Positions 1,154 through 25,014 of a stretch of 27,404 nt of DNA are shown one piece after another. The notes beneath the pieces were generated by a model that saw only the letters and a list, made by a program, of their open reading frames with translations, was not told the origin of the DNA and searched no databases. Position 1 is the stretch's first letter. Each line of letters opens with the position of its first letter. The stretch lies in the IMG/VR virus record IMGVR_UViG_3300032053_000419, positions 1-27,404 of that record. One strand, written 5' to 3'. Both the position numbers and the translations under genes were made by a program. The stretch is from a virus. Its lineage: Duplodnaviria; Caudoviricetes.

Positions 1154-2638
1154 ATGCCCTCTGGTGCTCGGGTCTGCTCAGACGCCGCGGTGCGAATCGA
1201 GCCGCAGCCCGGGCCTCAGACTGAGTTTCTTCGCTCCGCCGCCGACATTACCATCTACGGGGGCGCCGCTGGGGGAGGCAAGACGTTCGGCCTCCTGCTG
1301 GAGCCCCTCTACGGCGTTGGCACGCCCGGCTTCGGGTCCGTCATCTTCAGACGGACCTACCCAGAGATCACGGCGGAGGGCTCCCTGTGGGACACGTCGT
1401 TCCTGATCTACCCGATCTGCGGGGCGACCGCCAAGGAGACCGACCTGTCGTGGTCGTTCCCGCCGCACGGAGACACAGTCTCGTTCGCGCACGCCGAGCA
1501 CGAGAAGGACGTCTACAAGTACCAGGGGTCGCAGATCTGCATGATCGGCTTCGACCAGGTGGAGTCGTTCACCGAGTTCCAGTTCTTCTATCTCCTGAGC
1601 CGCAACAGGTCAGTCTGCGGCATTCGCCCCTGCGTCAGGGCGACGTGCAACCCCGACCCCGACTCGTGGGTCCACGGCTTCATCTCGTGGTGGCTCGACG
1701 CGGAGGGTCGCTTCCCAGACATAAGCAAGTCTGGCGCGATACGCTGGTTCGTCCGAGACGGCGATGACTTCGTCTGGGGCGGCACGAGGGCCGAGCTCCT
1801 CGAGACGCACCCCGGGCGCGACCCCAAGTCGGTCTCCTTCATCCCAGCCAGTCTGGTCGACAACCCAGCCCTCGAGACGGTCGACCCGGGCTATAGGGGG
1901 CGGCTGGACGCGATGCCCCTGGTGGACAGGGCCCGCCTGCTCTACGGGGACTGGAGCATACGCGTAGCCGCTGGCAACATGTTTCGTCGTGAGTGGTTCG
2001 CCGTGGTCGAGGGCGTGCCGTCTGGGATGCGCACCACGAGGTGCTGGGACCTCGCCGCGACGGAGCCGTCCTCCTCGAACCGCGACCCCGACTACACGGT
2101 CGGCCTCCTCTACGGGGCGCACGAGGGCCTCTTCTACGCGCTCGACGTCGTCCGCGTTAGGGCGAACCCGGGCAACGTAGAGGGCGTCGTCAAGCACACG
2201 GCGACGGTGGACGGCTACGGCGTGGAGATTGGGTTCGAGCAGGAGGGGGGCAGCGCGGGCAAGGGCGTCATCGAGCACTACGCCCGAGACGTGCTGCCAG
2301 GATACGTCGTCTTCGGGGAGCGCCCGACTGGGGACAAGGCCACCAGGGCGATGCTGCCCTCTGCGGCGGCCCAGCACGGGCTCATCCGCCTCGTCAGGGG
2401 CGCGTGGAATCACTCGTTCCTCTCCGAGCTCGAGGCGTTCCCGACGAACGGAGTGCACGACGATCAGGTCGACGCCCTCTCGCTGGCGCACGAGCACCTG
2501 TCGAGGGGGTACGGCCAGCAGCCGGGCTCGCCCGTCCCGCAGGCGTCGATTCAGGCCACGATGCTGGCGAGGGGCATACCGAGCATGAGAACAGACTATG
2601 AACCGCCCACGGGGGGCGGAGCACCGAGGATGAGATAA
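1154..2638 (+). CDS. terL: Terminase large subunit (Terminase_6-like ATPase + RNase H nuclease)
   Basis: PQPGPQ adenine-binding motif, Walker A GGAAGGGKT, Walker B-like IGFDQ, ATCNP motif III, nuclease WDLA...DYTVG...HDDQVDALS. Confidence 0.95.
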   Translation: MPSGARVCSDAAVRIEPQPGPQTEFLRSAADITIYGGAAGGGKTFGLLLEPLYGVGTPGFGSVIFRRTYPEITAEGSLWDTSFLIYPICGATAKETDLSWSFPPHGDTVSFAHAEHEKDVYKYQGSQICMIGFDQVESFTEFQFFYLLSRNRSVCGIRPCVRATCNPDPDSWVHGFISWWLDAEGRFPDISKSGAIRWFVRDGDDFVWGGTRAELLETHPGRDPKSVSFIPASLVDNPALETVDPGYRGRLDAMPLVDRARLLYGDWSIRVAAGNMFRREWFAVVEGVPSGMRTTRCWDLAATEPSSSNRDPDYTVGLLYGAHEGLFYALDVVRVRANPGNVEGVVKHTATVDGYGVEIGFEQEGGSAGKGVIEHYARDVLPGYVVFGERPTGDKATRAMLPSAAAQHGLIRLVRGAWNHSFLSELEAFPTNGVHDDQVDALSLAHEHLSRGYGQQPGSPVPQASIQATMLARGIPSMRTDYEPPTGGGAPRMR

Positions 2639-2824
2639 ATGGACATTCGTGGGGGGCTCAGCGGCCTCGATCTCTTGGGAGTCTCTATCGAGTCCGTGGA
2701 GACCGAGCGGACAGCAGAGGGAATCGCGATCGATATTTACGCGTCCGTCGAGGACTGGGGAGCACGGGCCGCCGACGCCATAGGGCGCGTCCTCTCGGGA
2801 CTCAATGAGGGGGTGGAGGCGTGA
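2639..2824 (+). CDS. Small acidic hypothetical protein (61 aa)
   Basis: Abuts the terL stop (TAA-ATG) and overlaps the portal start (GTGA). Confidence 0.55.
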   Translation: MDIRGGLSGLDLLGVSIESVETERTAEGIAIDIYASVEDWGARAADAIGRVLSGLNEGVEA

Positions 2825-4497
2825 GGCCACAGGAGAAGGAGACGGATACGAGTCAGGCGCGTCTGGGGAAGCGGGCGAACGCGACGACGCTGGCGCCCGC
2901 GGCGATGGTGCCCTACACGGGCTTCACGACGCAACTGCCGAGGGGGATGAAGGACACGGACATGTCCCCGAGGATGACGGGGTCCACGTCCCTCGAGGGC
3001 GTCTACTACGTCCCCTCGTGGCTGCCACAGTATAGCTTCGTCTCGTGGCTCCAACTCAACGAGGAGGTCACGGCGCACAAGATCTATAACCTCCTGAACC
3101 ACTGGGCGATGAAGGGCGTCCTGGTGAAGCAGATGAACATGATCTTCTCGGAGACGCCCGACTCGCGCATCCGGATTCGGGTCGTCGACGAGGCGGGGAA
3201 GATCGACGACACGGCGACCGAGCTCCAGCACAGGCTGAACCAGATGATGCTCACCTCTCCGAGGGTCGACCTCGTGCGGAAGATGAGGTTCTCCTTCGCC
3301 GACGTCTTCGGCTACGGGATGGGCATCTACTCGTGGCAGTGGAAGCGCCACGGGAGCGAGCTGTGCCTCGACGCGCTGGTCAGGCTGCCGTCCCACTCGT
3401 TCGACTACCCACCGATCGGGCAGCCCCTCGTCTTCAGCCCCATCCTACAGGGCGTCACCCTCGAGCGCGACCCGCAGACGGGCCTGAACACGGGGAAGTT
3501 GCAGTTCTGGCAGCGCCAGTCTGTATTTAACTTCTACCCGATGCTCCTCGACTCCGACTCGCTCTTCTGGCTCAGAGACCCGATCGGCCACGAGCTCGCC
3601 GGCGAGCCCATCTGCAAGCCGATTATCCCCCTCTGCGAGATGATGACCTACTCGATGAACTCCCACATGCAGTATATCAACCGCAAGGGGGCTCCGTGGT
3701 TCTTCGTCAAGGTCACGAACCCGCAGGGGGCGTCGGCGATCAACGGCTTCGTCGACGACATCTCCTACGCGAACACCATCCTCCAGTACGCCAGCAAGGA
3801 CAACCGCTACGTCTTGAGGCCCAACATGACGGTCGAGTCGGTCGACTTCGGGGACACGACCGGGTCCGAGCTAGCCGGGCTGTCGACGGTGCAGGCGCTG
3901 AACCAGATCATCGTGGACTACTTCAGCCCGAAGGAGAGCGTCCAGCCGCAACAGGGGCCGAGCCTCGGGGCGTCCACCGCGGGGGCCACCTCCCTCTATA
4001 ACGTCTACGTGGACGCGATGCGGGCGTGGCTCAGCAGGGAGTGGAGCCGCATCCCACAGTGGTACATCGACGCGAACGGCTTCGAGGGCTATCAGGCGAT
4101 CATCGAGTTCCCGACGGGAGAGGCCGACCCGGGCGACCTGAGGGCGAAGCAGGCCGCGGCGGGCGCCCTCACCGGGATAGCGCCTCCGCTACAGGTCCTC
4201 GAGAAGCTCGGCTATGAGATCGACATCCCCGAGGACGTATACGGCGAGGGGGACGAGGCCGTCGAGGCCTACCTCCTTCAGAACGCCGAGTTCTGGGGGA
4301 AGGTGAACACCGCGCTGGGCAGGGCGCCGGGCGCCCAGCCGGGCGGGTTCGGGGGCCAGCCCGGGGGCCAGCAGACGGCCCTCCGCGCCATCGCCGACGG
4401 CACCGTGGAGGAGCGCGTGGTCGCGGACGCCCGCGCGGAGATCGCCCGACTAAGGGACAAACTCTATAACGACGTCGAGAGGGCGCTGCACAGATGA
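2821..4497 (+). CDS. Portal protein (DUF935/Mu gp29-like by position and size)
   Basis: 558 aa between terL and MuF; D(VF)GYGMGI-type portal segment; GGGTGGAGG RBS. Confidence 0.75.
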   Translation: MRPQEKETDTSQARLGKRANATTLAPAAMVPYTGFTTQLPRGMKDTDMSPRMTGSTSLEGVYYVPSWLPQYSFVSWLQLNEEVTAHKIYNLLNHWAMKGVLVKQMNMIFSETPDSRIRIRVVDEAGKIDDTATELQHRLNQMMLTSPRVDLVRKMRFSFADVFGYGMGIYSWQWKRHGSELCLDALVRLPSHSFDYPPIGQPLVFSPILQGVTLERDPQTGLNTGKLQFWQRQSVFNFYPMLLDSDSLFWLRDPIGHELAGEPICKPIIPLCEMMTYSMNSHMQYINRKGAPWFFVKVTNPQGASAINGFVDDISYANTILQYASKDNRYVLRPNMTVESVDFGDTTGSELAGLSTVQALNQIIVDYFSPKESVQPQQGPSLGASTAGATSLYNVYVDAMRAWLSREWSRIPQWYIDANGFEGYQAIIEFPTGEADPGDLRAKQAAAGALTGIAPPLQVLEKLGYEIDIPEDVYGEGDEAVEAYLLQNAEFWGKVNTALGRAPGAQPGGFGGQPGGQQTALRAIADGTVEERVVADARAEIARLRDKLYNDVERALHR

Positions 4498-4631
4498 GAC
4501 AGATCATTGACCTCGGGTCCACCACGGACGGCGGGAGGCACTACGCCGAGTTCGACGGGGAGCGCACGGCCCCAGTGCAGTCGTGGACGTGGCCCTCGGC
4601 AAAGATAGTGGTCGAGGTGACCGAGACGTGA
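4494..4631 (+). CDS. Small hypothetical protein (45 aa, MRQIIDLG...VVEVTET), absent from the ORF track
   Basis: ATGA overlap with the portal stop and GTGA overlap with the MuF start; exactly fills the gap. Confidence 0.55.
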   Translation: MRQIIDLGSTTDGGRHYAEFDGERTAPVQSWTWPSAKIVVEVTET

Positions 4632-6217
4632 TTCGCGCCGTCGCCCGCGCGGCCGGCCCGAGTGGACGGGCGAGCCCGCTGGTCAAGCCGGCGGTGGTCA
4701 GGGCGATAGGCATGGCCTTCGAGGAGTATCAGTCGGGCCTCTCGAAGACCCTCGCCAGGGCGGGCATCGACGCCTACCTCGTCGGCGACAGGCGCGGGGC
4801 CGTCAGGCTGGGAGCAGACTACGAGGAGCTGAACTACGCCGCCGCGGAGGCCTTCGCCCAGAGGTATCGCGACGACATGGAGACGCGGGGCGGCACGACG
4901 ATACGCGGGGAGTTTGTCCCGTGGATCAGGGACGGCGCCGAGGCCACGAGGTCGGCCGTCGTGGACGCGATCGAGGAGGGCGTCCGCTCCGGGAAGGGCA
5001 GTCGGGCGATAGCCCGCGACCTCAGGGGCGTCATCGACGAGGAGGCGCACGACCCCGCGCTGGTGGCGCAGACGGAGATGTCGCGCCTGGTCCACGTGGG
5101 GGAGCACCAGAGATACGTGGACGAGGGCGTCTCCTTCGTCGACTGGCTCCTCGGCGACAAGACGTGTCCCGAGTGCATGGACATCGCGATGGCCGACGTG
5201 GGCTACGGCCCCGGGCGCTACCCGATCGACGAGTGCCCCGAGATCCCGGTCCACCCGAAGTGCGAGTGCGACACCAAGGCCGTCCAGAGGGGTCAGGAGA
5301 GCACGCTCCGCGCTCACGTCTTCGAACCGGGCCACGAGGCCTACAACCCGGACATGTCCCGCGACGAGGAGGGCAAGTGGTCCGGTGGAGGGGGCGCGTC
5401 GACGCCCGTCTCGCGCGTCGGCAAGGCGTGGGTGCTCGCCGACGGAACTCCCGCGCCGGGGCACGTCCAGGCCCTCGGGATACCCCCGGCGTGGACAGAC
5501 GTGGTCGTCGACCCGAACCCCGACGCCGACCTCGTGGCGAAGGGGCACGACTCGAAGGGGCGGACCCAGTACATCTACTCCGAGCGCTACGACTCCGAGC
5601 AGCAGGCGGCGAAGTTCGCGAGGGTCTCCGAGATGGCCGACAGGTTCGACGAGATCCGGGCCCAGAACGAGGCGAACAGGGGGACGGAGGAGGCCGACCT
5701 GACCGCCCTCGTCATGTCGACCGGCATCCGCCCGGGCAGCGAGAAGGACACGAGGGGCGACGTCAGGGCCTACGGCGCGACGACCCTCGAGGGCAGGCAC
5801 GTGGTCGTCACCGAGGAGGGCGTGAGGCTCCAGTTCGTGGGCAAGAAGGGCGTCGACCTCGACATCCCCGTGGAGGACAAGTCAGTGGCCGATATGCTCG
5901 TCGAGCGGGCGGGGGCCGCCGGCGCCGACGGGCAGCTCTTCCCTACAGTCGGCCCGAGCGAGCTCTCAGACTACGTGCACGGGCTGAACGGCGGCGGCTT
6001 CAAGACGAAGGACTTCCGCACCGCGCTGGGCACGTCGACGGCCAGGGACCTCGTGGCCCGCACTGAGGCGCCCACGTCCAAGACGGCGTACAAGAGGGCG
6101 GTGCGGGGCGTGGCCAAGGCCGTCGCGGCCAGGCTGGGCAACACGCCGACCGTCGCGCTCCAGAGATACATCGCGCCAGAGGTATTCACCCCCTGGAGGG
6201 AGGCCGCGCATGTTTGA
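4628..6217 (+). CDS. MuF (SPP1 gp7-like) minor head protein fused to a C-terminal DNA topoisomerase IB domain
   Basis: MuF: AQTE...W...DKTCPEC...PVHPKCEC. TopIB: IPPAWTDV, GHDSKGRTQYIY, GIRPG (R), FVGKKG (K), KDFRT (R), LGNT (N), RYI (Y). GTG 4628 follows a GAGGTGA RBS. Confidence 0.9.
   Translation: MIRAVARAAGPSGRASPLVKPAVVRAIGMAFEEYQSGLSKTLARAGIDAYLVGDRRGAVRLGADYEELNYAAAEAFAQRYRDDMETRGGTTIRGEFVPWIRDGAEATRSAVVDAIEEGVRSGKGSRAIARDLRGVIDEEAHDPALVAQTEMSRLVHVGEHQRYVDEGVSFVDWLLGDKTCPECMDIAMADVGYGPGRYPIDECPEIPVHPKCECDTKAVQRGQESTLRAHVFEPGHEAYNPDMSRDEEGKWSGGGGASTPVSRVGKAWVLADGTPAPGHVQALGIPPAWTDVVVDPNPDADLVAKGHDSKGRTQYIYSERYDSEQQAAKFARVSEMADRFDEIRAQNEANRGTEEADLTALVMSTGIRPGSEKDTRGDVRAYGATTLEGRHVVVTEEGVRLQFVGKKGVDLDIPVEDKSVADMLVERAGAAGADGQLFPTVGPSELSDYVHGLNGGGFKTKDFRTALGTSTARDLVARTEAPTSKTAYKRAVRGVAKAVAARLGNTPTVALQRYIAPEVFTPWREAAHV
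5321..5395 (+). repeat. Peptide tag copy 1 (FEPGHEAYNPDMSRDEEGKWSGGGG)
   Basis: Lies between the MuF and TopIB domains; homologous to copies at 6375, 7130 and 7975. Confidence 0.95.
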
Positions 6218-7070
6218 TTACGACGTCCACCACGGCGCCGTCCGCGGGCGGCCCGTCGACTGGAGGAGCGCCCCCGATCCCGACCCCGAGGACGACGACG
6301 AGCTGCTGGCCGCCACCCCGGCGGGCGTGATCGCCACCCTCGGCTTCGACCCGATCGAGTCGCGGACTCACAGGTTCGAGCCCGGCCACGAGCCATACAA
6401 TCCAGACATGGGTCGAGACGAGAAGGGTCGTTTCACCTCTGGAGGAGGTGGCGGGGCCAGCCTGGTGAGGGGTGGCAAGCTCCGCGACTTCAGAGACATG
6501 TTCGCGGACAAGGACCTCGACTACGTGGAGCGAGCCACGATCTATGACTACATAGGCAGCGGCGGGGTGAGGTCGGCCACGATCAACCGCGAGCTGCGCG
6601 GCGGGCGCCTTGGCGCGAACACCAAGGAGGACGTGAAGGTCCTCGACGCGGCCATCGCCAAGACCACGCTCGACCCGAGCGAGCTCGAGGACCCGACCCT
6701 CTACAGGGGCATCGACATCGCCCACCTGAGCGAGGCCCTCGGGCGCGAGCCGCGGCCGGGCGACGTGATAGTCGACAAGGCCTACCAGAGCACGACGACG
6801 GACCGCAGCTGGGCCGTCAGGACGTTCGGTAGGACCAACTTCGCGAGGGACGGCAGCCCGATCCCCCCGACGGGAGATGAATACACGGTCCTCGAGATCC
6901 ACCCGACCGAGCCGATCCACGCCGTCTACAACAAGGAGGAGGATGAGGTGATCATGCCGAGGGGCACCGCGTTCAGGATAACCGGCGTCGAGACCCGCGA
7001 CGAGAGGGTATGGCCCACCATACCCGAGACGAGGCGCGTCACCGTCGTCAGGTGCGAGGTGGCGAGATGA
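6210..7070 (+). CDS. Tagged ADP-ribosyltransferase (VIP2/C2-like R-S-E class) with an acidic N-terminal segment
   Basis: Y...INRELR helix, LYRG (R), YQSTT (S), EEDEV (ExE), PRGTAFRI; GGAGG RBS. Confidence 0.88.
   Translation: MFDYDVHHGAVRGRPVDWRSAPDPDPEDDDELLAATPAGVIATLGFDPIESRTHRFEPGHEPYNPDMGRDEKGRFTSGGGGGASLVRGGKLRDFRDMFADKDLDYVERATIYDYIGSGGVRSATINRELRGGRLGANTKEDVKVLDAAIAKTTLDPSELEDPTLYRGIDIAHLSEALGREPRPGDVIVDKAYQSTTTDRSWAVRTFGRTNFARDGSPIPPTGDEYTVLEIHPTEPIHAVYNKEEDEVIMPRGTAFRITGVETRDERVWPTIPETRRVTVVRCEVAR
6375..6449 (+). repeat. Peptide tag copy 2 (FEPGHEPYNPDMGRDEKGRFTSGGG)
   Basis: Directly precedes the ART domain. Confidence 0.95.
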
Positions 7071-7909
7071 TAGAGGCGGAGAGGTTCATGGGGCTCTACG
7101 AGCCGGTCGGGGAGTCCGAGGAGAACGTCTTCCAGCCCGGTCACGAGCCGTTCAACCCCGACCAGGGGCGGGACGAGGGGGGGAAGTTCTCACCGGGTGG
7201 GGACGGAGGGTCGTCGCCGCCCATGCCCCCGGTCGACGCTTTCTATGGGCAGGTGATCACGCGCGAGAGGGAATACGACGTGCCAGGCAAGGAATACGCG
7301 TTGGCTCAGGAGAAGGAGTTCGGCCTCAAGAAGACCAAGCTCCAGCCTGAAGACGAGGAGGCCGTCAAGTTCTATGCCGCTAAGAAGGACCCCTCTGGTA
7401 AGAAGGACACGGAGCAGCTCGGCTATCGCAGAATGAACAACCAGATGAGGGGGAAGGCCGACCCCACGCCCGAGGTCCAAGAGAAGATCGAGGCAATGAA
7501 GGGCGTCGTGGACAAGTCCCCACCCCTGCCAGAGGGCGTCCAGCTCTTCAGGGGGATAGGAGACGACCACTCCGAGACCCTCTACGGTATGAAGGTCGGC
7601 GACGTGTGTGAGGACAAGGGGTTCCAGTCGTGGACCCTGAACCCGAACACGGCGAACGCCTTCACGGGCTACGTCACGGAGGCGGGGGCGGGCGTTCTCG
7701 ACCCAGATTGGCAGGCGGCCAAGCCGGTGATGCGCCTCGTCGGGGACGGCGCGACGAGGGGATTCTACTACAGAGGTGGCTCGGAGAACGAGATGATAAT
7801 CAACCCAAGCCAACTGCGCGTCGTTCGCGTGGACGACGTGAGGCAAACAATGAAGCGGGAAGGCAAGGGCTTCGTCTACTGGAAGGTGTTCACAGTGGAG
7901 GTGGCGTGA
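7067..7909 (+). CDS. Second tagged ADP-ribosyltransferase (VIP2-like R-S-E class), 280 aa
   Basis: YRRMNNQMRG, LFRG, DKGFQSWT, SENEM (ExE). Start ATG 7067 has an ATGA overlap and GAGGTGG RBS, so it is preferred over 7010. Confidence 0.85.
   Translation: MIEAERFMGLYEPVGESEENVFQPGHEPFNPDQGRDEGGKFSPGGDGGSSPPMPPVDAFYGQVITREREYDVPGKEYALAQEKEFGLKKTKLQPEDEEAVKFYAAKKDPSGKKDTEQLGYRRMNNQMRGKADPTPEVQEKIEAMKGVVDKSPPLPEGVQLFRGIGDDHSETLYGMKVGDVCEDKGFQSWTLNPNTANAFTGYVTEAGAGVLDPDWQAAKPVMRLVGDGATRGFYYRGGSENEMIINPSQLRVVRVDDVRQTMKREGKGFVYWKVFTVEVA
7130..7204 (+). repeat. Peptide tag copy 3 (FQPGHEPFNPDQGRDEGGKFSPGGD)
   Basis: Begins at codon 22 of the gene, before the ART domain. Confidence 0.95.
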
Positions 7910-8913
7910 TGCCCGAGTCGAGGTTCAACGCCGAGATCGAGATAGTCAGCCGCGCCTCCGATCAGGAGAGCGTCTTCCAGCCCGGGCACCCCGCCTACAA
8001 CCCCGACATGTCCCGAGACGAGGCGGGCAAGTTCTCGTCGGGGGGTGGTGGCAGCCCCGCGGCCGTCCACTCGAGGGTCATGGCGATTCGCGAGAGCAAG
8101 AGGGCAGGCTACGACGCGATCAGACAGAGGATTCGCGACGCCCGCGCCCACGAGAGCGAGGTCCTCACCCGGCTCACGCCGCGCTTCGACCAGCTCTGGA
8201 GCGAGAAGGACCCGGAGGTCAGGGTCGCCCTGAGGGAGAAGCTGGCCGTCCAGCAGAAGGAAGTCGTCGACCCGCTGTCGAAGGCGGTGTGGGACGCCGT
8301 GGACGAGCTCGACGCATACAAGGCCGCCGCGGCGGAGGAGATGTGGACGGCGATCGCTCCGACCGTCGGCTCCGTCGTCAGGACCAGGGACTGGGATCCG
8401 AGCAACAGCGTCCGCGACAAGAACCCCAACATCGAGGAGGGCGCGAGGTGGGTCGGCAGGATGGTCGTGACCGACGCGTTCGACGAGCCCGTCGGGGTGA
8501 TGGAAGAGGAGGGCACCCGAGAGAAGGGCGGGGCGGTGAACATCTCTATGAAGCCCACCTCTGAGAAGTGGGTGGCCGTCCACGAGCTCGGGCACACCCT
8601 CGAGGACCGCGACCCGGAGATCCACAGGGCGGCGGTCGACTTCTTGGCGTCGAGGACCTCGAGCGAGGCCGACGTCAGGCTCGCCGACCTCAAGCCGAAC
8701 TACAACTACGACAGCGACGAGGTCACCCGCCCCGACCGCTTCACCGACGTCTACATGGGCAAGCAGTATAGGGGGGCCGGCGGGGAGCCCTACGCCACCG
8801 AGATCGTCTCGATGGGGCTTCAGAAGATCTACCAGTCGCCGGGGGACCTCGCCAAGAGGGATCCCGAGTATTTTAAGTTAATGGTGGGCGTGATGGGGAG
8901 GGCCAAGAAATGA
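7909..8913 (+). CDS. Tagged zincin-like metallopeptidase (HExxH), 334 aa
   Basis: VAVHELGHTLE, YMGKQY...ATEIVSMG (candidate third ligand E) after a helical segment; ATG 7909 with TGATG overlap and GGAGGTGG RBS. Confidence 0.8.
   Translation: MPESRFNAEIEIVSRASDQESVFQPGHPAYNPDMSRDEAGKFSSGGGGSPAAVHSRVMAIRESKRAGYDAIRQRIRDARAHESEVLTRLTPRFDQLWSEKDPEVRVALREKLAVQQKEVVDPLSKAVWDAVDELDAYKAAAAEEMWTAIAPTVGSVVRTRDWDPSNSVRDKNPNIEEGARWVGRMVVTDAFDEPVGVMEEEGTREKGGAVNISMKPTSEKWVAVHELGHTLEDRDPEIHRAAVDFLASRTSSEADVRLADLKPNYNYDSDEVTRPDRFTDVYMGKQYRGAGGEPYATEIVSMGLQKIYQSPGDLAKRDPEYFKLMVGVMGRAKK
7975..8049 (+). repeat. Peptide tag copy 4 (FQPGHPAYNPDMSRDEAGKFSSGGG)
   Basis: Begins at codon 23 of the gene. Confidence 0.95.
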
Positions 8914-9149
8914 CGAAGGTAATAATCAGGGTGGGGCGCTGCCGCGCCTCGAACGAGGGCGGTGAGTGGTCGTCGGACGAGCCGGTGCTCGCCCGCCTCC
9001 TGAACGCCCGGGCCGGGCCGAGGTCGCTGCCAGAGGAGTACATCCCGGACGCGGCCTCGGCGATGCTCGGGCTGGCCAGGGCCGTCCTGCCTAACCTAGA
9101 GGTGGTCCTGCTGAGGACGCCTCGGGCGGCGCCGGGGGAGGTCTACTGA
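8910..9149 (+). CDS. Small hypothetical protein (79 aa), possible peptidase partner
   Basis: ATGA overlap with the peptidase gene; GGGGAGG RBS. Confidence 0.65.
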   Translation: MTKVIIRVGRCRASNEGGEWSSDEPVLARLLNARAGPRSLPEEYIPDAASAMLGLARAVLPNLEVVLLRTPRAAPGEVY

Positions 9150-9451
9150 TGTCGTCGACCGCGGAGGACTGCCTCCACTCCCCCCTCGAGCGCGTCGGGC
9201 CCAACCCCGTGATGACCGCGTTCCTCGTCGAGATGGCCAGGCAGCGCGCGGAGGCGGCGTGGGTGTGGTTCACCGTCTACAACCCACTGAACATCTGGGT
9301 CACGATCCCGCCCGAGTTCGAGGAGGAGTGCTCCGAGAGTACCATCGAGGCCGCCTCGCGGTGGGAGGTCCAGAGGATGTTCCTCTGGCACCTCGGGCTC
9401 GAGCGCAGCCCCGACGCCATGGGGGTGATGCCACGATGCCGCCGTACGTGA
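9149..9451 (+). CDS. Hypothetical protein (100 aa)
   Basis: TGATG overlap; GGAGGT RBS. Confidence 0.6.
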   Translation: MSSTAEDCLHSPLERVGPNPVMTAFLVEMARQRAEAAWVWFTVYNPLNIWVTIPPEFEEECSESTIEAASRWEVQRMFLWHLGLERSPDAMGVMPRCRRT

Positions 9452-11493
9452 CGCCCGACCTCGGCCCCGGCGCCCCCAAGGGCATGGTGGCGGAGGCGGG
9501 GCGCATCTACCGCGCCCTCAGAGAGGACGGCTACGAGGCCGAGAGGGCGGCCCCGATCATGTGGGCCAGCCTGAAGAAGAGGTGGAAGAAGGAGGGCGAC
9601 AAGTGGGTGGCGCGCAAGGAGAAGAGTAACGCGAGGTGGGCTCCGATGATGCAGATCCCGAGCGGAGGAGCGGGGGCCGGCGCAGGTCAGAGGTGCACGA
9701 GGTTCGGAAACACCGTGCTACAGGGCCTCGACCAGTGGCTGCCCGACGACAAGGGGCGCGTGCAGGGAACGTATTATCCCAAGTCGGCGTTCGAGCCGAC
9801 AGTGGGCGAGTGGGGCCAGGGAGTCCCCATCGTCTTCGGAGCCAAGCACGTCAAGATAGGCGGGCTGGCGAGGGATCCCGAGAAGACCCTACGAGACGCG
9901 AGCACGGACGAGGTCCGAGCCCGGATCGTGGGCTACTCGGTGGGGGTGGCGCTGCTGAGCAAGCATATCGGCAGGCCCCTGCTGAAGGTGGACCTCGGAG
10001 ACATATGCGACGCCGAGGTCCAGAACCTCTACGACGACGCGCGCCTCGGAGTTAGCAGCGCATTCACGGACCGCGAGACGGAGGACGGGAAGTATCTGGT
10101 CGGGGATATCCACCCCGATCACATCCTCCTGTTCCCCCGCGACGCCCTCACGGGCACTGAGCAGCGGGACTTGTCCGCGGTCGTGAACACCCTCAACCAG
10201 ATGGAGGGAGGTATGGATGATGTGAGAGGCGATCAGGAGAACGTAGGGGCCGAGTTCTCAAGAAAGAACAAGGACAAACTCAGGGGCTATCTCGGCGTCC
10301 TCCACGACCTCACCTCGAAGATAGAGGAGATGGTCGGGGAGAGCATGAACGACCTCGAGACGCTCCTCAGGCGGGCCGGGCAGGGCATGCCGGGGTCCGA
10401 GAGCAGCGCCGTCGAGACAACCGACGCCGCCGCTCGCGAGAACGCAAGCAAGTTTCCCTACGTTCCGAAGAACCCGAGCGACTACGAGAAGGGGACGGGG
10501 TCGTGGACCAAGCCGTCCCTGGGCGACTATACCGACAAGGTCTGGGATGATCTGACCGAGGAAGAGAGGAGCGACATTCGCTCCCACTTCGCGGCGGTGA
10601 CCGATGACACCTTCGGTGGGTGTAGGCTGGGCCACCACGAGCCCGACGGCACCCTCAACGCCAACGGCGTCAGGGCCGCCCTCGGGAGGCTCGATCAGAC
10701 GGACGGTATCTCCGGCATAGCCGAGAGCGTGCGGTCCCACCTCGAGAGCCACTCGAAGGAGTTCGGCGAGGAGAAGAGCGAGACGAACAACCTACCCAAG
10801 GAGGAGGTATCTATGGGAGAACAGGATAACAAGAAGAGGTCTGAGGCGGAGGCCGAGGCGGCCCGCAAGAAGGCGGAGGCCGAGGCCGAGGCCGCAAAGA
10901 AGGCAGAGGCAGAGGCCGAGGCAGAGGCCGAGGCGGAGGCCGCCAAGAAGGCGAAGGCCGAGGCCGCCAGGAAGGCCAAGTGCGGCGCCGACGACAAGGG
11001 CAAGGGCGCGCCCAAGGACGACGAGGAGCTCGAGGACGAGGCTGAGGGCAACAAGAAGAACATCGCCGTCCTCCAGGCGCAGATCGCCGCCCTCACCAAG
11101 AAGGTGTCCGAGAGGGACGCCCTCGAGGAGATGGGGCGGAAGAGGGACTTCACGAACCTTCTGAAGCCGGGGGCGCAGAAGGCCACCGAGCAGCTCTATA
11201 AGGAGTTCATCGCGGACCCTGTTGGGTTCATGAAGTCGAGGCAGAACGCCCTCGCCGGCAGCGGCGGGGAGACCGATCTGACGGGTCTCGAGCACGTCCC
11301 GAGCGGCACGGCCGCCGGCGACGGGAGCCCGTTCTCCGAGCAGGCGGTCAAGGCAAAAGCGGCCCAGCTGAACGCGAGACTCTCCGACAGCCCGGACAGG
11401 GCGGGGGAGAGCACCGTCGGGCGCGCCGTCTACAACGAGCAGACTGGCAAGCGCGACTGGGTTCCGCTCGGGCCATTCAGGAAGGAGGCGTGA
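9436..11493 (+). CDS. Head maturation protease/scaffold fusion with N-terminal ChaB-like domain (685 aa)
   Basis: N-terminus MPPY...IY...WASLKKRWKKEGDKW resembles ChaB. GVSSAF...DIHPDHILLFPR resembles DUF2213-type prohead proteases. The C-terminal A/E/K-rich coiled coil fits a scaffold. Located just before the capsid genes; ATG 9436 follows GGGGTGA. Confidence 0.7.
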   Translation: MPPYVTPDLGPGAPKGMVAEAGRIYRALREDGYEAERAAPIMWASLKKRWKKEGDKWVARKEKSNARWAPMMQIPSGGAGAGAGQRCTRFGNTVLQGLDQWLPDDKGRVQGTYYPKSAFEPTVGEWGQGVPIVFGAKHVKIGGLARDPEKTLRDASTDEVRARIVGYSVGVALLSKHIGRPLLKVDLGDICDAEVQNLYDDARLGVSSAFTDRETEDGKYLVGDIHPDHILLFPRDALTGTEQRDLSAVVNTLNQMEGGMDDVRGDQENVGAEFSRKNKDKLRGYLGVLHDLTSKIEEMVGESMNDLETLLRRAGQGMPGSESSAVETTDAAARENASKFPYVPKNPSDYEKGTGSWTKPSLGDYTDKVWDDLTEEERSDIRSHFAAVTDDTFGGCRLGHHEPDGTLNANGVRAALGRLDQTDGISGIAESVRSHLESHSKEFGEEKSETNNLPKEEVSMGEQDNKKRSEAEAEAARKKAEAEAEAAKKAEAEAEAEAEAEAAKKAKAEAARKAKCGADDKGKGAPKDDEELEDEAEGNKKNIAVLQAQIAALTKKVSERDALEEMGRKRDFTNLLKPGAQKATEQLYKEFIADPVGFMKSRQNALAGSGGETDLTGLEHVPSGTAAGDGSPFSEQAVKAKAAQLNARLSDSPDRAGESTVGRAVYNEQTGKRDWVPLGPFRKEA
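10843..10980 (+). repeat. Low-complexity GAGGCN repeats encoding AEAEAEAA(R/K)KK scaffold helix
   Basis: Tandem GAG-GCN units visible in the DNA and protein. Confidence 0.8.
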
Positions 11494-11494
11494 G

Positions 11495-12439
11495 ATGACT
11501 GGACAGAGAGCGCCGAGCCCACTGATCAACAAGATCGTCTGGTTCGGCGGAGTCCCAATGGCGATTCCGATGAACGTCGCGGAGGTTACGAACATCGCGA
11601 AGTTCGTCCCCGGTCGCCTCGCCGCGTCGGGCTCTAGGCTCGGCACCGGCACGGGATACTCAGACAACGACGCATACGTGGCCAACCTCCCGACGCAGAT
11701 GCCGTTCGGGTGGATCGGATACGAAGACGTCGACACCAACGCACGTCCGGCGGACGTGACGAAGGCGTACACGAATGGAGACGAGACGCGCGTCTATATG
11801 GGCGGCGGGTTCGGGATCTACGCGAGCCTGTTTACCTACCAGGCCGTCAAGCAGGGCGATCTCCTCTGCAACTGGTTCAACGGCCAGCTCGCGGGGCCGG
11901 TCGCGCCCGCCCCTGGTGGGATCTTCCTCGCAGTCCCCTACGCGACCGCGGCGGCCGTGGTCAGCACGGCGATTATCGTCCCGGTCGGATGCATGGTCGG
12001 CCACCACAGCTATGTCGAGCCGTCGACCGCGCTGGCGAGCACGATCGAGGTGGGCTTCGAGAACGCCACCGAGAGCGGGGACCTCGACGGAATCCTCAAC
12101 GCGATCTCCATCAACGCGACGAACATCCCCGTGGCGTCGAGCGCCTTCGGGACCGGCGCCGCGGCGGAGACGATCGGTGAGCTGCTCGCGGGAGGCGAAG
12201 AGGGATCTTCCTCGACGTACACCTACGGGCTCCTCTACCCCGGCTACGTCGTGGCGAGCCCCGGGTCGATGAACACCCTCGGCCGCACCGTCGTCTACAC
12301 GCCGGGCAGCGCCTCGGCGTGCGCCGGCCGCATCTGGCTGCACCTCGTGCACCCGCACCTGCGCGTCGTCGCCAAGGCCACGGAGAGCGTTACGACCACC
12401 AGCTCGGCCAGCAGCATTCGCTGCCTGAGCATGATTTAA
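11495..12439 (+). CDS. Capsid decoration/cement protein (314 aa)
   Basis: Between scaffold and MCP; beta-rich; V..GDLL...GQL and VVAKA.E pattern of decoration proteins. Confidence 0.55.
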   Translation: MTGQRAPSPLINKIVWFGGVPMAIPMNVAEVTNIAKFVPGRLAASGSRLGTGTGYSDNDAYVANLPTQMPFGWIGYEDVDTNARPADVTKAYTNGDETRVYMGGGFGIYASLFTYQAVKQGDLLCNWFNGQLAGPVAPAPGGIFLAVPYATAAAVVSTAIIVPVGCMVGHHSYVEPSTALASTIEVGFENATESGDLDGILNAISINATNIPVASSAFGTGAAAETIGELLAGGEEGSSSTYTYGLLYPGYVVASPGSMNTLGRTVVYTPGSASACAGRIWLHLVHPHLRVVAKATESVTTTSSASSIRCLSMI

Positions 12440-12452
12440 GGAGGAACGAGAC

Positions 12453-13430
12453 ATGGCAATCACTCTCGAGCCACTTCTGTTCCGAGCTGGCCAGGCGATC
12501 GACCTCGAGATCATCCAGCCCCTGAGGGCGTGGACGGTCGCGAGACAGGCGATCACCGCCAACCCGAACATCAAGGGAGAGGGCATCTACTCGGTCGACG
12601 CGATCCGTCTGGCCGACGCGGGCCCGGCCACGATCAGCTACCAGCTGCCGAGGCCCAACGACATCAAGGACGCGCCGCGGCTCAGCCGTGAGAACGTTCA
12701 GCTCCCCATCCTGCGTCACCAGATCGAGATCGACAGGAAGGAGTTTAACGCGCTCCAGAACTACGCCGGCGGGTCCATCGACATCACCCGCATCGGGGCG
12801 AACTCGCAGGCCTACCAGATGGCGGTCCTCGAGGACGCGCTGGTGTTCCAGGGGTGGAAGGCCGACGGAACCAACTACGCGATCTCGGGGTTCTACAACG
12901 CCTCGACCACGCAGTACACGACCTCGACGACCTTCGGGAACGGCTCCTACTACGGGAACTTCAACAAGATGATCGGCGCCGCCATCGGCAGCCTGAAGGC
13001 GTACGGCGTCAAGCCCCCGAACGGGTGCTACCACCTCTTCATGAACGCCGGGGACTACTCGTGGCTCGACGGCATTATCAGCACCCTCGGTGTGAAGGAG
13101 ATGGACGCCGTCCTCAAGACGCTGAACCACGGCAGGGACGCCGGACCCGGTGGAATCTGGGAGCTCCCGTCCGTGACCATCACGGACCCGGGCACCAGCA
13201 GGACGCAGACGATCACGGCCATGGCGCAGGGCACGGCCCTCCTGATGCCGGACGACCCGACGCGGACCTGGTACGAGGAGTACGTCATACAGGACGTCAA
13301 GACGAGCCTCGGCTACGACAGCCGCGACCCGAACAACTCCCCGATCTACTCCACCATGACGTCCATCGTCTACCCGCACCTGAAGCAGCCGCACGCCGGC
13401 TGCCAGATCACCACGCTGGTGCAGGGCTGA
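12453..13430 (+). CDS. Major capsid protein, HK97 fold, encapsulin/Linocin_M18-like
   Basis: LPIL.HQIEIDRKE...A.QMAVLEDALVFQG...ISGFYNA spine-helix pattern; strong AAGGAGG RBS; 325 aa. Confidence 0.8.
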   Translation: MAITLEPLLFRAGQAIDLEIIQPLRAWTVARQAITANPNIKGEGIYSVDAIRLADAGPATISYQLPRPNDIKDAPRLSRENVQLPILRHQIEIDRKEFNALQNYAGGSIDITRIGANSQAYQMAVLEDALVFQGWKADGTNYAISGFYNASTTQYTTSTTFGNGSYYGNFNKMIGAAIGSLKAYGVKPPNGCYHLFMNAGDYSWLDGIISTLGVKEMDAVLKTLNHGRDAGPGGIWELPSVTITDPGTSRTQTITAMAQGTALLMPDDPTRTWYEEYVIQDVKTSLGYDSRDPNNSPIYSTMTSIVYPHLKQPHAGCQITTLVQG

Positions 13431-13473
13431 GCTGGTGGGCTCCGGTCCACCACCTCTCCCCAACGAGGCGACG

Positions 13474-13791
13474 ATGGCGAACGAAATGACGAGGGTCAAG
13501 GCCCTCAAGAGCTTCACCGCCGACGGGTATCCGCAGGACGAGACCACCATGCACGGGATGCGGTTCAACCGGGAGGGAATGATATGCGAGGTGCCGACGA
13601 GTCGCGTCGAGTATCTCCTCTCTCTCGGAAGCATCGCGCTGCTCCCACCGGAGGAGGCCCCAGTCGAGGCCCCGGCGGCGCCGAGCGAGACCGTGGCGGC
13701 GGAGACCGTCGAGAACTCGGTGTCTGAGGTAAAGAAGCCTCGGCGCGCCGACGGGCGGTTCGCGCTCAAGAATACCAGGAAGAAGAGGTGA
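13474..13791 (+). CDS. Small post-capsid protein (105 aa) with Pro/Ala/Glu linker and basic tail containing RRADGRF
   Basis: ATG 13474 follows GAGGCG; typical position of small head accessory genes. Confidence 0.6.
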   Translation: MANEMTRVKALKSFTADGYPQDETTMHGMRFNREGMICEVPTSRVEYLLSLGSIALLPPEEAPVEAPAAPSETVAAETVENSVSEVKKPRRADGRFALKNTRKKR

Positions 13792-13797
13792 TCACGC

Positions 13798-14316
13798 GTG
13801 ACGGTCACGACCGACATGATCGACGGGGATAGCCCGTTCTCCCTCGGGCAGACCAAGGACGCCACTAGCAGGACGTATACGCAGTCGATGTTTAACCGCG
13901 CCCTCGCGAGGGCCGAGGACAGGTTTGCCAGAGAGAACCCGGGCCTCGGCTCGAACGAGGGGGACCAGGCGGTCGAGTATCTCGTCTGCCACTTCCTCTA
14001 CATGACGTTCGAGGGCGCCGAGGACATGGTCTCGGGCAGGATAGGCGACATGTCCTTCCAGAAGAAGGTCGACGACGAGACCGGAGAGGTCATGACCACG
14101 TATCTGTCCCTGTACAAGGGCCTGATCACCCTCAAGGGCAGCCGCGCCGTCGTGGCGCAGGCCGGAGTGGTGGCGGCGGACTCGCTCACTGCGAGGTCGC
14201 TGCATCCGAGCAATCAGAGGCTGCCGCTCATGGACTATGACGACAACAGCACGGGCGCTCCGACTCCAAGCAACAAGCGCCCTGCCGGGCAGGGGCCGAA
14301 TCCCCTGTACCCCTAG
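13798..14316 (+). CDS. Head-tail adaptor (DUF4054/gp15-like)
   Basis: AVEYLVCHFL...SGRIGDMSF...TTY...Y pattern; GAGGTGA RBS; synteny. Confidence 0.65.
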   Translation: MTVTTDMIDGDSPFSLGQTKDATSRTYTQSMFNRALARAEDRFARENPGLGSNEGDQAVEYLVCHFLYMTFEGAEDMVSGRIGDMSFQKKVDDETGEVMTTYLSLYKGLITLKGSRAVVAQAGVVAADSLTARSLHPSNQRLPLMDYDDNSTGAPTPSNKRPAGQGPNPLYP

Positions 14317-14332
14317 TGGGAGGTAAGAAGGG

Positions 14333-14926
14333 ATGATCACAATCAGTAAGGGCAGCGCCCTCGGCGGCGTGGCGGGCACGGCGGCCGTGATCGACTATAC
14401 GATTATGGGCTCCGAGAAGTCCCAATACGACGCCAGGGACGTGAAGACCCTCGCTCAGGGCAAACTCGACGACGAGGCGGCCGCCCTCTACACGGCGCCC
14501 ACCGTGGCGCCCGGGAGGGTCGAGGCCGTGTTCCTCGCGAACACGTCCGGCACGGCGGTCACGGGCGTCTACCTAACGGTGGACGGCTACCGGATCACGC
14601 CGGCGCTCACTATCCCCGCCTACGGGGCCGCAGTATACGGCCCAGACGGGTGGAAGACCTACACCACTGTCGGTGAGATCTCGGTGGCGTCCGGCGGGAC
14701 GGCCACGGCGTTCCCGAGGTACGGGGCCGCGGCCACGACAGCAGACGGAGGCGCCATCACCCACGGGTTCTCCGCGGCGCCGACGGTGGTGCTCGCGTGT
14801 GGGTCGATAGACACCGAGATGGTCACGATTACGGCCATCGGGTCCACGACGTTCACGGTCGCGATCAAGACGGCCCTGGGGGCGCCGGGGACTACGCAGA
14901 CGATCTACTGGGTGGCGATACCATGA
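14333..14926 (+). CDS. Virion appendage protein (head/neck fibre-like) with small C-terminal beta domain
   Basis: C-terminal ITHGFSAAPTVV...FTV...IYWVA resembles fibre-tip domains; N-terminus is paralogous to the 25015 gene. Confidence 0.55.
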   Translation: MITISKGSALGGVAGTAAVIDYTIMGSEKSQYDARDVKTLAQGKLDDEAAALYTAPTVAPGRVEAVFLANTSGTAVTGVYLTVDGYRITPALTIPAYGAAVYGPDGWKTYTTVGEISVASGGTATAFPRYGAAATTADGGAITHGFSAAPTVVLACGSIDTEMVTITAIGSTTFTVAIKTALGAPGTTQTIYWVAIP

Positions 14927-15765
14927 CGTCTTTCATGCAGAAGATGATCGGGGTCGTCGCCGTCTTGGCGATAGTCATGGCGGCGGCGTCGCTCGGACTA
15001 GTCCTCACGACTCCGCAGGGCCAACAGCCGGGGATTCTCGGCGCGGGGGTCGGGACCACCGACTGGGACTCCGCCTCGATCGCGAAGCCAGGGGTCCGCA
15101 ACTGGATCGATCAGGCGAACAACCTCACTCGGAAGGCGTTCCTCGCAGAGGACCTGATCCGGAATCTCACGAAGACGCTGGACTCGGCGGACAGAAACGC
15201 CTCGTTCGCCATAGACGCGTCCACGAGGAACGTCTCGTTCGCCATAGACGCGTCCACGGCCAATATCACGGCCCTCAGGGGCAATGGGACGGCGGTGCTC
15301 ACTAACACCACCACTGTGCCGGTGGCCATGCTCACGACGAGCTGGGCCGAGCTGCTGGCTCTCTCGGCCGGGCAGAGCCTGAACATCACGACGCCCGGGG
15401 CGGGGAGCTTCCTCGTCATCGCCAACCTGAGGGAGAACATCTCGGTCTCGTCGGCGGGCCAGATACCCGCGAGCGACTTCTCGGTGTTCGCCCTGTGCGA
15501 CGGCACCAGCGCCGCCGCGGACTCGGTCGTCACCAACTCCGAGCGCATGGGTACGATGTTCACGGGCACGCCCACCTACTCGAACATCACAGACGTGACC
15601 CGCACCTTCGCGTGGACCTACACTAACGCGACTGGCGCGGCCATAATCAGGGTGTGCGGCAAGATCCACGCCAACCTCCAGAACGGAGAGGCGGGCCCGG
15701 CGTGGTGGGGCGTCGCGTCCGACAGGGCGGGTAGATCGACCATCGGATACGTGAGGCTGCCATGA
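14923..15765 (+). CDS. Membrane-anchored/secreted protein rich in N-x-S/T sequons (280 aa)
   Basis: N-terminal K followed by hydrophobic IGVVAVLAIVMAAASLGLVL; 11 of 17 Asn are in sequons; ATGA overlap. Confidence 0.7.
   Translation: MTSFMQKMIGVVAVLAIVMAAASLGLVLTTPQGQQPGILGAGVGTTDWDSASIAKPGVRNWIDQANNLTRKAFLAEDLIRNLTKTLDSADRNASFAIDASTRNVSFAIDASTANITALRGNGTAVLTNTTTVPVAMLTTSWAELLALSAGQSLNITTPGAGSFLVIANLRENISVSSAGQIPASDFSVFALCDGTSAAADSVVTNSERMGTMFTGTPTYSNITDVTRTFAWTYTNATGAAIIRVCGKIHANLQNGEAGPAWWGVASDRAGRSTIGYVRLP
15193..15258 (+). repeat. 33-bp tandem duplication (RNASFAIDAST / RNVSFAIDAST)
   Basis: Near-identical copies at 15193-15225 and 15226-15258. Confidence 0.9.
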
Positions 15766-16289
15766 GGGTGTCGGCCCTCTCCCTCCTCTCCGCCCTCGTG
15801 GTGGTGGCGCTCGTCGCCGGGTGCGCGACGAGCACGGGCTCGCCCGGGTCGGTCCTCGGGATCAGCCCGTCGCAGCTCAACGGGAGATACATCCAGAGCC
15901 TCACTCTGAACACGACCCTCCCGGCGGCCGGCGTTAGCCTGCTCGCCGCCGACCTGTCGATGCCGACGGGGATCGAGGAGCCCCTGATGTATCTGGGCGT
16001 GCTCTTCGAGTGCAACGTAGGCGGGGTGCTGTCGGTGTCTCATAACGTCGGCTCCGGCAACTCCACCATGCTCGAGCAGCTCAACGGGGGCGTCGCCCTG
16101 GTGCCAAATCAGACGTACGCCTTCGTGGTGCCCATCGTCCAGACCGAGGTGATGAACTTCCGATACTCGGCCAACGGGACGACCACGAATGGAACGATCC
16201 AGCGGCTCGCCGTCATGGACCTCTACGAGGGAGGCTACGCCGGGATTCAGATCATCAACGGCACTCTGAAATATACCAGTGGGACGTGA
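15762..16289 (+). CDS. Predicted lipoprotein (175 aa)
   Basis: MR + hydrophobic stretch + LVAG|C lipobox; 6 of 11 Asn are in sequons. Confidence 0.7.
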   Translation: MRVSALSLLSALVVVALVAGCATSTGSPGSVLGISPSQLNGRYIQSLTLNTTLPAAGVSLLAADLSMPTGIEEPLMYLGVLFECNVGGVLSVSHNVGSGNSTMLEQLNGGVALVPNQTYAFVVPIVQTEVMNFRYSANGTTTNGTIQRLAVMDLYEGGYAGIQIINGTLKYTSGT

Positions 16290-16842
16290 AATCTTGCTGT
16301 TCGGGCTGTCGCATAAGTGCACGATTCAGGTGAGGGCGCGCAAGAAGAGGCTGGACTACACCGGCCTCTCGGGCGGGGCGTTCGCCGTGGGGAATACCGT
16401 GACGGGCGGGACGTCGCACGCCACGGGCGTGGTCAGCAGGCTGCTAACCGCCGGGCTGGTCCTCGAGGACTTGTCGGGCGTGTTCGTGGTTAGTGAGACG
16501 GTCTCGAACGGGACCGCTTCGGCCACGACGTCGGCGGTCGCCGACTACGAGACGGCGCAGGGCACGCCCGACTACTACTGGACAGATAGTCAGGCCAACG
16601 TGCCGTGCCGGTTCTACACCAGCCGTAAGCCCATCGCCCTGATCGGCCCCGGGCAGTACCAGGACCTCGCGACGAAGGTCATCGTCCCGCCGACCGTGAC
16701 GGTCACGGCGACGGAGCATAGAATCAAGTCGGCGTCGATCGGGTTCGCCAAGACGTTCCGCATCACGGACCTCTACGCGGCCCACTTTACACACGGGATA
16801 AACCACTACGAGCTCACGCTCGAGGAGCCACCGAAGGAATGA
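16279..16842 (+). CDS. Head closure/stopper protein with inserted beta module
   Basis: HKCTIQ N-terminus, VPCRF and INHYELTL C-terminus match head-closure proteins; the start may be TTG 16294. Confidence 0.55.
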   Translation: MGREILLFGLSHKCTIQVRARKKRLDYTGLSGGAFAVGNTVTGGTSHATGVVSRLLTAGLVLEDLSGVFVVSETVSNGTASATTSAVADYETAQGTPDYYWTDSQANVPCRFYTSRKPIALIGPGQYQDLATKVIVPPTVTVTATEHRIKSASIGFAKTFRITDLYAAHFTHGINHYELTLEEPPKE

Positions 16843-17156
16843 ACGGAGATTCGACCGTAACGATCAACCAGTGCGACAGGCGTATGTCAGAGGTAAGGAA
16901 CGAGATCCAAGTCTTCTGCTCTACGGTCACGGCGTCGATAGACGGATTAAAGGACGAACTACACAAGAAGGAGGTCGTCGACGTGGCGAAGCACGCCGAG
17001 GTCGAGGCGGAGATCGCCAGGGAGAAGTCGGAGAGGACTCTGAAGGACTGGGTCTTCGTCCACTATCAGGACCTTCTCCTCGCGTTCATCGTGATCATGG
17101 TCAGCGGCGGCCGCGCCTACGACCTGCTGATGATGGTCAAGCAGGGGCTGATCTGA
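16839..17156 (+). CDS. Small coiled-coil protein with C-terminal TM helix (possible lysis/holin-like)
   Basis: Charged helical N-terminus followed by hydrophobic LLLAFIVIMV. Confidence 0.5.
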   Translation: MNGDSTVTINQCDRRMSEVRNEIQVFCSTVTASIDGLKDELHKKEVVDVAKHAEVEAEIAREKSERTLKDWVFVHYQDLLLAFIVIMVSGGRAYDLLMMVKQGLI

Positions 17157-18149: not shown

Positions 18150-18243
18150 TGGCGCCGCCGGTGATCGGGGGCTCGCCCCGTGAGTCGGCGCAGAAGGTCG
18201 AATACTCAGGCGCTCGCTGGAGCGCCATAGACAAGGAGGAATC

Positions 18244-25010: not shown

Positions 25011-25014
25011 GAGA

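Follow-up and report, generated by a model that had tools for sequence, protein, structure and literature searches.

A shared header peptide on four enzyme genes in the head module of a tailed virus: a candidate tag for capsid cargo and a joint for cassette exchange

A 27,404-nucleotide stretch of tailed-virus DNA (IMG/VR record IMGVR_UViG_3300032053_000419; hereafter the window) carries in its head module a cargo block of four consecutive genes, g1 to g4, that encode a topoisomerase IB (TopIB), two ADP-ribosyltransferases (ARTs) and a zincin peptidase, and that share one 23-residue peptide, the tag. We consider it moderately probable, from the comparisons described below, that the tag marks proteins as prohead cargo, that the prohead protease cuts before it and that the enzymes are injected into the next host, the DNA of the tag serving as a joint between cassettes.

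Results

As the sequence-only reading had stated, the tag occurs once and in frame in each of four consecutive head-module genes on the + strand, at 5321..5389 (tag 1), 6375..6443 (tag 2), 7130..7198 (tag 3) and 7975..8043 (tag 4), preceded by RAHV, RTHR, EENV and QESV, respectively; the full pattern is absent elsewhere in the window in all six frames. Over 23 residues the best ungapped identity was 15–19 in the six pairs of tag genes versus at most 12 in 319 other gene pairs, and 150 shuffles of the four tag proteins reached at most 11 of 23. The tags are identical at 51–56 of 75 DNA letters, the changes being concentrated at third positions, and the different synonymous codons quoted earlier for the invariant Gly and Arg residues are correct. 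The tag peptide is under purifying selection, with proportions of synonymous (pS) and non-synonymous (pN) differences of 0.62 and 0.20 in the pooled tag codons (six pairs of 23 codons). The position near the N-terminus claimed for the genes that lack MuF also holds, the tag Phe being residue 56, 22 and 23 in g2, g3 and g4, and residue 232 in g1. All four 23-mers are net acidic (D+E 3–6, K+R 2–3). The tag core is predicted to form a small R-D-x-x-G-K-W hairpin, an AlphaFold2 model of the tag having an Arg-Trp bridge at a mean predicted local distance difference test score (pLDDT) of 73. No Pfam family matched the four tags or the leader of g2 at E<=10, and no PDB sequence matched a profile of 15 tags.

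The tagged genes have the make-up of MuF – tag 1 – TopIB (g1, 4628..6217, start inferred from a GAGGTGA site), 55-residue acidic leader – tag 2 – ART (g2, 6210..7070), 21-residue leader – tag 3 – ART (g3, 7067..7909) and 22-residue leader – tag 4 – variable helical segment – zincin (g4, 7909..8913), all on the + strand. The MuF match of g1 is weak (PF04233 E 0.002 and TIGR01641 E 2e-4, below the curated cut-offs; several PHROG head-morphogenesis matches at E 1e-9), and g2 to g4 are without MuF, in agreement with the earlier reading. As judged from the sequence, the catalytic motifs of the cargo are intact: TopIB (E 2e-17) has CxxC, PxHPxCxC, GIRPG, FVGKKG, KDFRT, LGNT and LQRYI; both ARTs are of the R-S-E type, with LYRG, YQSTT and EEDEV in g2 (PF03496 E 3e-6) and LFRG, FQSWT and SENEM in g3 (PF03496 E 0.002, below the cut-off); and the zincin (phrog_33618) has HExxH at 8581 and a distal Glu that all six aligned homologues keep. 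The block had been described as four different enzymes, each directly behind its tag. Four cargo domains are indeed present; the two ARTs belong to one enzyme class, which leaves three classes of cargo, and in g4 about 130 largely helical-looking residues separate the tag from the peptidase core.

Shine-Dalgarno (SD)-like sites lie ahead of g1 to g4, as had been noted for g2 to g4, and the g3 ART differs from that of the relative L001 by 15 synonymous and 5 non-synonymous changes (ratio of non-synonymous to synonymous rates, dN/dS, 0.09), which together argue that g1 to g4 are expressed. The g2 leader is conserved as well (dN/dS 0.21–0.36); constraint on this leader and on the g3 ART argues that the genes without MuF are not decaying spares. 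An ESM Atlas search with the g2 leader gave no usable match, and a search for it as a free small gene after TopIB found none, matching only the two known relatives.

By its sequence, the tag belongs to a peptide family that is widespread in phages, [FY][NDS]P[DN]QxRDxxG[RK][WF], of which it is a long form. The window tags fit this family in having the core [FY][NDS]P[DN]xxRDxxG[RK][WF] and a Gly linker ahead of the module. Other viruses have the tag too, and what is particular here is the F[EQ]PGH extension: only three genomes, those of the window, L001 and a second relative, L002, were found to have the long form that carries it. Among 1.84 billion proteins, a profile of seven native tags matched 466 clusters (E<=0.001). 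The top 150 of these (145 from other viruses, 5 from the own clade) hold 514 anchored copies with the consensus [FY][NDS]P[DN]Q[PAE]RDxxG[RK][WF][TS]xGG, six of which have the F[EQ]PGH extension, and most copies in the family are internal junctions of polyproteins. With the five own-clade proteins left out, 406 post-tag modules fell into 183 clusters, 144 of them singletons. Pfam assigned to the first 80 of the 145 non-clade proteins 18 MuF, 2 portal, 11 ART, 9 zeta kinase, 5 2H phosphoesterase, 4 GNAT, 2 Acb1 and 2 TopIB matches, with 27 proteins having no family, and relatives of the window TopIB, ARTs and peptidase sit downstream of tags in proteins of the family.

The tag family occurs on MuF, portal and protease polyproteins and in viruses whose portals belong to three different families (PF04860, PF06381 and PF06074). 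Tags lie in the head modules of other phages (loci L003, L004 and L006), one tag kind of L004 having a PGHE stretch that resembles the extension of the window tags, and the protease polyprotein of the locus L014 contains two short-form tags, each after REN. The proposal of a portable signal in head proteins is supported in that the family heads diverse enzymes in head-module proteins. In the profile search suggested with it, diverse enzymes follow the tags and fusions to MuF and portal are seen; most of the scanned matches carry no head domain.

Several head-region genes of L004 (5058-13940) contain two tag kinds, about 15 copies of K-GD(L/V)xGHxFxGNQW and 2 of K-EFNPDQSRD. L007–L009 have no tag core, and matches to the long tag in L012 (in a head-closure-like gene) and L025–L028 were dropped as chance. 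Searching cultured phages with single tags by tblastn, a method too insensitive to prove absence, gave one match at E=6 outside annotated head genes. The literature search, which did not extend to subscription journals or the supplements of Iyer et al., found no published description or name for the tag.

The residue directly ahead of the tag is likely a site of the head protease, as suggested by sequence conservation within proteins that hold several tags. In 128 such proteins, within-protein identity at positions −1 to −5 was 0.68, 0.45, 0.24, 0.24 and 0.17, versus 0.21, 0.11, 0.09, 0.07 and 0.07 for permuted tags, and the real values at −6 to −15 were near background. One residue was common to all tags of a protein at −2/−1 in 118 of the 128 (K 61, A 31, E 13, N 12), versus a mean of 37 and a maximum of 53 in 5000 permutations. 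The earlier suggestion of a processing signal is favoured by this virus-specific residue. By eye, RxD stands before the tags and near the N-termini of the protease and the capsid protein in the cultured cyanophages PaV-LD and CL131, and Asn at module borders of the protease polyproteins of the window's clade. An aligned site near the portal C-terminus reads EN in four of seven homologues and has Thr, Ser or Arg in the others, a variation that would fit a tolerant protease site and proves nothing.

The sequence-only reading had also proposed that tag DNA acts as a recombination joint, and at the level of contigs this is borne out for tags 3 and 4. The contigs of seven sequencing runs (X1–X7) were compared with the window. 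In X5 and X6, which come from two studies and possibly one campaign, contigs break at these two tags: the left flank ends at 7140, 7111-8000 is covered by an 890-nt contig, the right flank begins at position 7971, and letters of the g3 leader are joined to tag 4 in a contig of 45 nt. Depths were 34.4 and 38.6 for the flanks, 19.4 for the cassette and 22.2 for the junction in X6, and 14.6, 12.4, 8.7 and 7.3, respectively, in X5. The + strand letters 7126..7140 are identical to 7971-7985; this 15-nt crossover zone is the longest in-register identity among the six tag pairs (others 8–11 nt), and the geometry of tags 3 and 4 predicts exactly a 45-nt junction and an 845-bp unit. That unit, the + strand cassette at 7141..7985, comprises the rest of tag 3, the ART, its stop, the g4 leader and the start of tag 4. 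The g3 ART cassette is missing in roughly half of the X5 and X6 populations as seen in contigs, the difference reflecting either a loss or a gain. In the deletion form, tag 4 and the peptidase are read in frame from the g3 leader, so that leaders look interchangeable. X1, X2 and X4 run through without a break, and X3 and X7 cover too little.

That the 45-nt contig is a library chimera or an assembly artefact seems to us very improbable. The evidence consists of contigs rather than raw reads, the junction falls inside the 15-nt identity and the two studies may be one campaign, all of which would suit such an origin. However, these contigs overlap by 30 nt, which exceeds the 15-nt identity, the junction depth is close to that of the cassette in both runs with their sum close to that of the flanks, and X2 and X4 are continuous through the site.

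The cassette unit has the order tag – enzyme – stop – next leader, and L002 shows the same grammar at greater distance: it has an extra tag-headed module between MuF and TopIB, and its g2 leader is fused to a different ART, followed by an untagged small open reading frame (ORF) that resembles the g4 leader. The extra module has no Pfam or PHROG match; we take it to be JAB-like. Cargo behind the tags is exchanged between relatives. Both window ARTs match one ART of L002 (29% and 37%).

In L002 (8177-10921 and 11920-14404), the MuF protein starts with a glutamine-amidotransferase domain, its extra tag-headed module bears HSH, and the head module contains a collagen-repeat fibre gene. L001 and runs X2 and X4 have about 501 different letters in place of the + strand segment 8079..8576 of g4, which starts 35 bases past tag 4. 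Two alleles of g4 differ by block replacement (8079-8576 and 8773-8862), and X2 has both, at depths of 93.6 and 7.7.

Cultured viruses carry related arrangements. The g4 peptidase occurs in two cultured phages as a MuF fusion and in PaV-LD as a stand-alone protein; in the latter, the peptidase and ART genes start with a cysteine tag, a small g5-like gene follows the peptidase, and the 'virion structural protein' ORF081R is so named by RefSeq label only. In the 50 kb examined of the 113 kb of CL131, a tag of the RDxxG family lies in a portal-InPase-MuF polyprotein, and the stand-alone ORF044, 047 and 048 carry a different, cysteine tag. Liquid chromatography–tandem mass spectrometry of CsCl-purified CL131 particles listed 23 proteins (PMC6293099 SI Table 5), including all four tag-bearing ones, with 59, 9, 14 and 105 peptides. 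Stand-alone proteins headed by a tag can therefore be part of the virion; that the tag causes their presence does not follow. In the section of this paper (PMC6293099) consulted here, the tags go unmentioned. At 1490-18985 of PaV-LD (L033) and 39276-48140 of CL131 (L037), headers of RxD and a cysteine loop stand on stand-alone ART, peptidase and hydrolase genes.

The window covers 27.4 kb of a tailed-virus genome. On its + strand lie the terminase and portal genes, the cargo block and the protease-scaffold gene, together with genes for an encapsulin-like capsid protein, the neck, a tape measure protein and fibres. The portal (2821..4497, +) has no Pfam match of its own, PF06074 being found in four of seven listed homologues. 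The cargo block had been placed between portal and prohead protease, which holds, but two small genes lie between g4 and the protease. One is g5 (8910..9149, +; dN/dS 0.34), a conserved 79-residue ORF and small partner gene that follows the g4-type peptidase also in PaV-LD (pairwise BLAST with ORF082R, E 8e-5) and that possibly encodes an immunity protein; the other is g6 (9149..9451, +), a small conserved gene kept in L014 at 63%.

A polyprotein of ChaB-like, prohead protease, further modules and scaffold follows (9436..11493, +). Its protease assignment is based on ESM Atlas (YonD_N/DUF2213/S78) and on Foldseek viral matches to prohead proteases at E of about 4e-5 to 1e-4; a Foldseek PDB search with the protease model gave none at E<=0.001, herpesvirus proteases ranking 4 and 8. 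This polyprotein (9436-11493) has two or three internal modules that are conserved, one of which contains HHEPDG, and in L014 the internal modules are exchanged for tag-headed modules of no assigned function.

The major capsid protein (12453..13430, +) is encapsulin-like (HK97), matching the family 1 encapsulin models PF04454 (E 4e-8) and NF041155 (E 2e-10); it has only four database relatives, at 75–98%, and no match among cultured phages. A small protein after the capsid gene (window 13741-13791; L014 5108-5443) has at its C-terminal end, inside a K/R-rich tail, a basic look-alike of the tag core, RRADGRF in the window and RGSGGQF in L014. An open-ended 820-residue ORF with repeated Gly/Thr-rich segments (24943-27402) probably encodes a fibre, and its N-terminus resembles the ORF at 14333. 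No Rfam family matched at E<=0.1.

The host is probably archaeal, if on slender grounds: the closest cultured match of the terminase is a Methanoculleus virus (52.5%), with a Rhizobium phage second (47.4%), GAGGTG(A) sites, which we take to represent the SD consensus, precede several starts in the window, and scans of GTDB with capsid or portal alignments found no provirus. No integrase was found among the 28 ORFs scanned in the window, the genome being partial. The gene 3' of the terminase in the Methanoculleus virus, considered as a portal counterpart, was unrelated to the window portal. With this negative comparison, no GTDB provirus and no cultured capsid match, the host assignment stays inferred. 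At least half of the cargo block was present in six of the eight runs listed, all six being sediment metagenomes and one of them possibly the source of the window.

Discussion

In the explanation that we favour, each of g1 to g4 would be a cassette of short leader, tag, glycine linker and enzyme. After late expression the tagged enzymes would be taken into the prohead as cargo, the prohead protease would cut directly before the tag, and the tag would remain on the mature enzyme as its new N-terminus. The freed enzymes would then enter the next host cell with the DNA, as judged from T4 Alt (PMC9026906) and from the predictions made in PMC5512222 and PMC9503650. There TopIB could relax the incoming genome, the ARTs could modify host proteins, and the zincin could cut host targets or process cargo. 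The reader of the tag would be one of the proteins inside the prohead (capsid, scaffold, portal or MuF) rather than DNA, a preference that we base on the acidity of the tag.

Several observations weigh against this explanation. Sixty of the 80 Pfam-scanned proteins of the tag family are without a head-protein domain, in a protein library that carries no gene context, and the top profile matches are biased to multi-copy polyproteins. The two cultured MuF-fused homologues of the g4 peptidase have no visible tag. In CL131, the stand-alone tagged proteins of the virion carry the cysteine tag and not the RDxxG type, and of the 12 genes ORF038-049 the products of 11 were listed for the virion irrespective of a tag, so that virion presence is not specific to the tag. 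As for the cut site, the sharing of a pre-tag residue within proteins could in part reflect recent duplication; 32 of the 61 Lys-type proteins hold Lys despite a changed spacer or register, which is not expected from duplication alone. A column test of the protease polyproteins gave no enrichment of Asn (5 of 115 columns versus a background of 4.2%), and among the seven long tags of the window and L002 one follows Asn, four His and two Ser.

The tag could instead form only the primed side of an element recognised by the protease, or serve as a spacer for folding, and would then carry no address, with loading achieved by MuF, portal or scaffold fusion or by the leaders. The virus-specific residue directly before the tag, the prevalence of internal polyprotein junctions among its copies and the existence of untagged MuF-fused peptidases all speak for such a role. 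We nevertheless regard it as unlikely: the tag core is constant across viruses whose pre-tag residue differs (K, A, N, D, R), unlike a site matched to its protease, g2 to g4 are without a head domain and have three unrelated leaders, and the g4 enzyme has the g3 leader in the deletion form. Binding of the tag to DNA, by which the enzyme, once cleaved, would stay tied to the genome so as to be retained and later ejected, is less likely again. A universal ligand would explain conservation over three portal families, and the basic look-alike in the K/R-rich tail of the small post-capsid protein (RRADGRF; RGSGGQF in L014) points the same way, but the four tags are all net acidic, and we therefore disfavour the DNA-binding element that had been among the functions suggested earlier. 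More doubtful still is that g2 to g4 are spare MuF toxin cassettes, with the tag as a recombination handle, delivery only once on MuF and leaders that are remnants of immunity genes. The excess of synonymous over non-synonymous change in the tags (pS 0.62 versus pN 0.20) is the reverse of what selection for identical DNA would produce, purifying selection on g3 is strong with no MuF attached, and no junction to tag 1 was present in the seven runs compared.

MuF polymorphic toxins, which Jamet et al. 2017 (PMC5576092) found in Firmicutes and their temperate phages, have MuF in the head-packaging module, a variable C-terminal enzyme, a small downstream ORF and a proposed delivery with the DNA. 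The likeness of our cargo block to them is closest for g1, whose N-terminal MuF is followed by a variable C-terminal enzyme (TopIB in the window, the extra module and TopIB in L002). Downstream of g1 comes g2, whose 55-residue leader is conserved but fused to tag and ART, and g4 is followed by the conserved 79-residue ORF, a possible immunity gene. As opposed to these toxins, three of the four enzymes here are without MuF and all four share a header peptide; the word 'motif' is absent from the main text of PMC5576092.

Phage polyvalent proteins and effectors fused to MuF, portal or protease, with ART, zincin metallopeptidase (MPTase; HExxH and Glu), 2H, GNAT and ParB domains in a head-gene context, were predicted to be packaged, processed and injected, and their recombination by cassettes was suggested (PMC5512222, PMC9503650). 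The window shares with them cargo types (ART, MPTase) and the head-morphogenesis context. Polyvalent proteins join at least two effector domains in one polypeptide, as do g1 of L002 and many tag-family matches, whereas the window genes have one enzyme each, the repertoire being split into genes. A shared short header with a virus-specific cut residue is not described for them in Iyer et al. 2017 (PMC5512222) or PMC9503650, as far as these texts were available. The cargo block resembles polyvalent proteins divided over several genes, with a shared header peptide.

The T4 capsid targeting sequence (CTS), a 10-residue N-terminal propeptide on IPI-III and Alt that is processed by gp21 and removed, is likewise a short portable peptide on unrelated internal proteins, including an injected ART, with a link to the prohead protease (PMC9026906). 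Our tag fails the defining position of the CTS, starting at residue 22-56 or 232 or inside polyproteins, lies downstream of the likely cut and would stay on the cargo, and has no sequence likeness to it; its function, moreover, is predicted.

In family 1 encapsulins, short cargo-loading peptides address enzymes into shells. The encapsulin-like capsid protein of the window recalls these systems, but the window belongs to a tailed virus with portal and terminase, and tags of the family are found as well in phages whose head genes differ.

More tentatively, the tag family may amount to a universal portable code for capsid cargo in bacterial and archaeal tailed viruses, in which a virus-specific protease site and a conserved hairpin header would address any downstream enzyme to the head and retain it for ejection, and in which the DNA-level crossover point would tune the injected cocktail cassette by cassette. 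The tag bears on the entry of effectors such as ARTs, Acb1-like nucleases and peptidases, whether stand-alone or fused, into the heads of phages other than T4, and the present locus adds a likely archaeal host and population evidence of tags as cassette joints. CL131, which is cultured, has a published virion proteome and carries such tags, makes the predicted cut site checkable on existing material. If the favoured explanation is true, the tag would be a tool for loading proteins into capsids, and the 13-23-residue header would provide a search handle for injected anti-defence enzymes (144 of the 183 clusters of post-tag modules are singletons).

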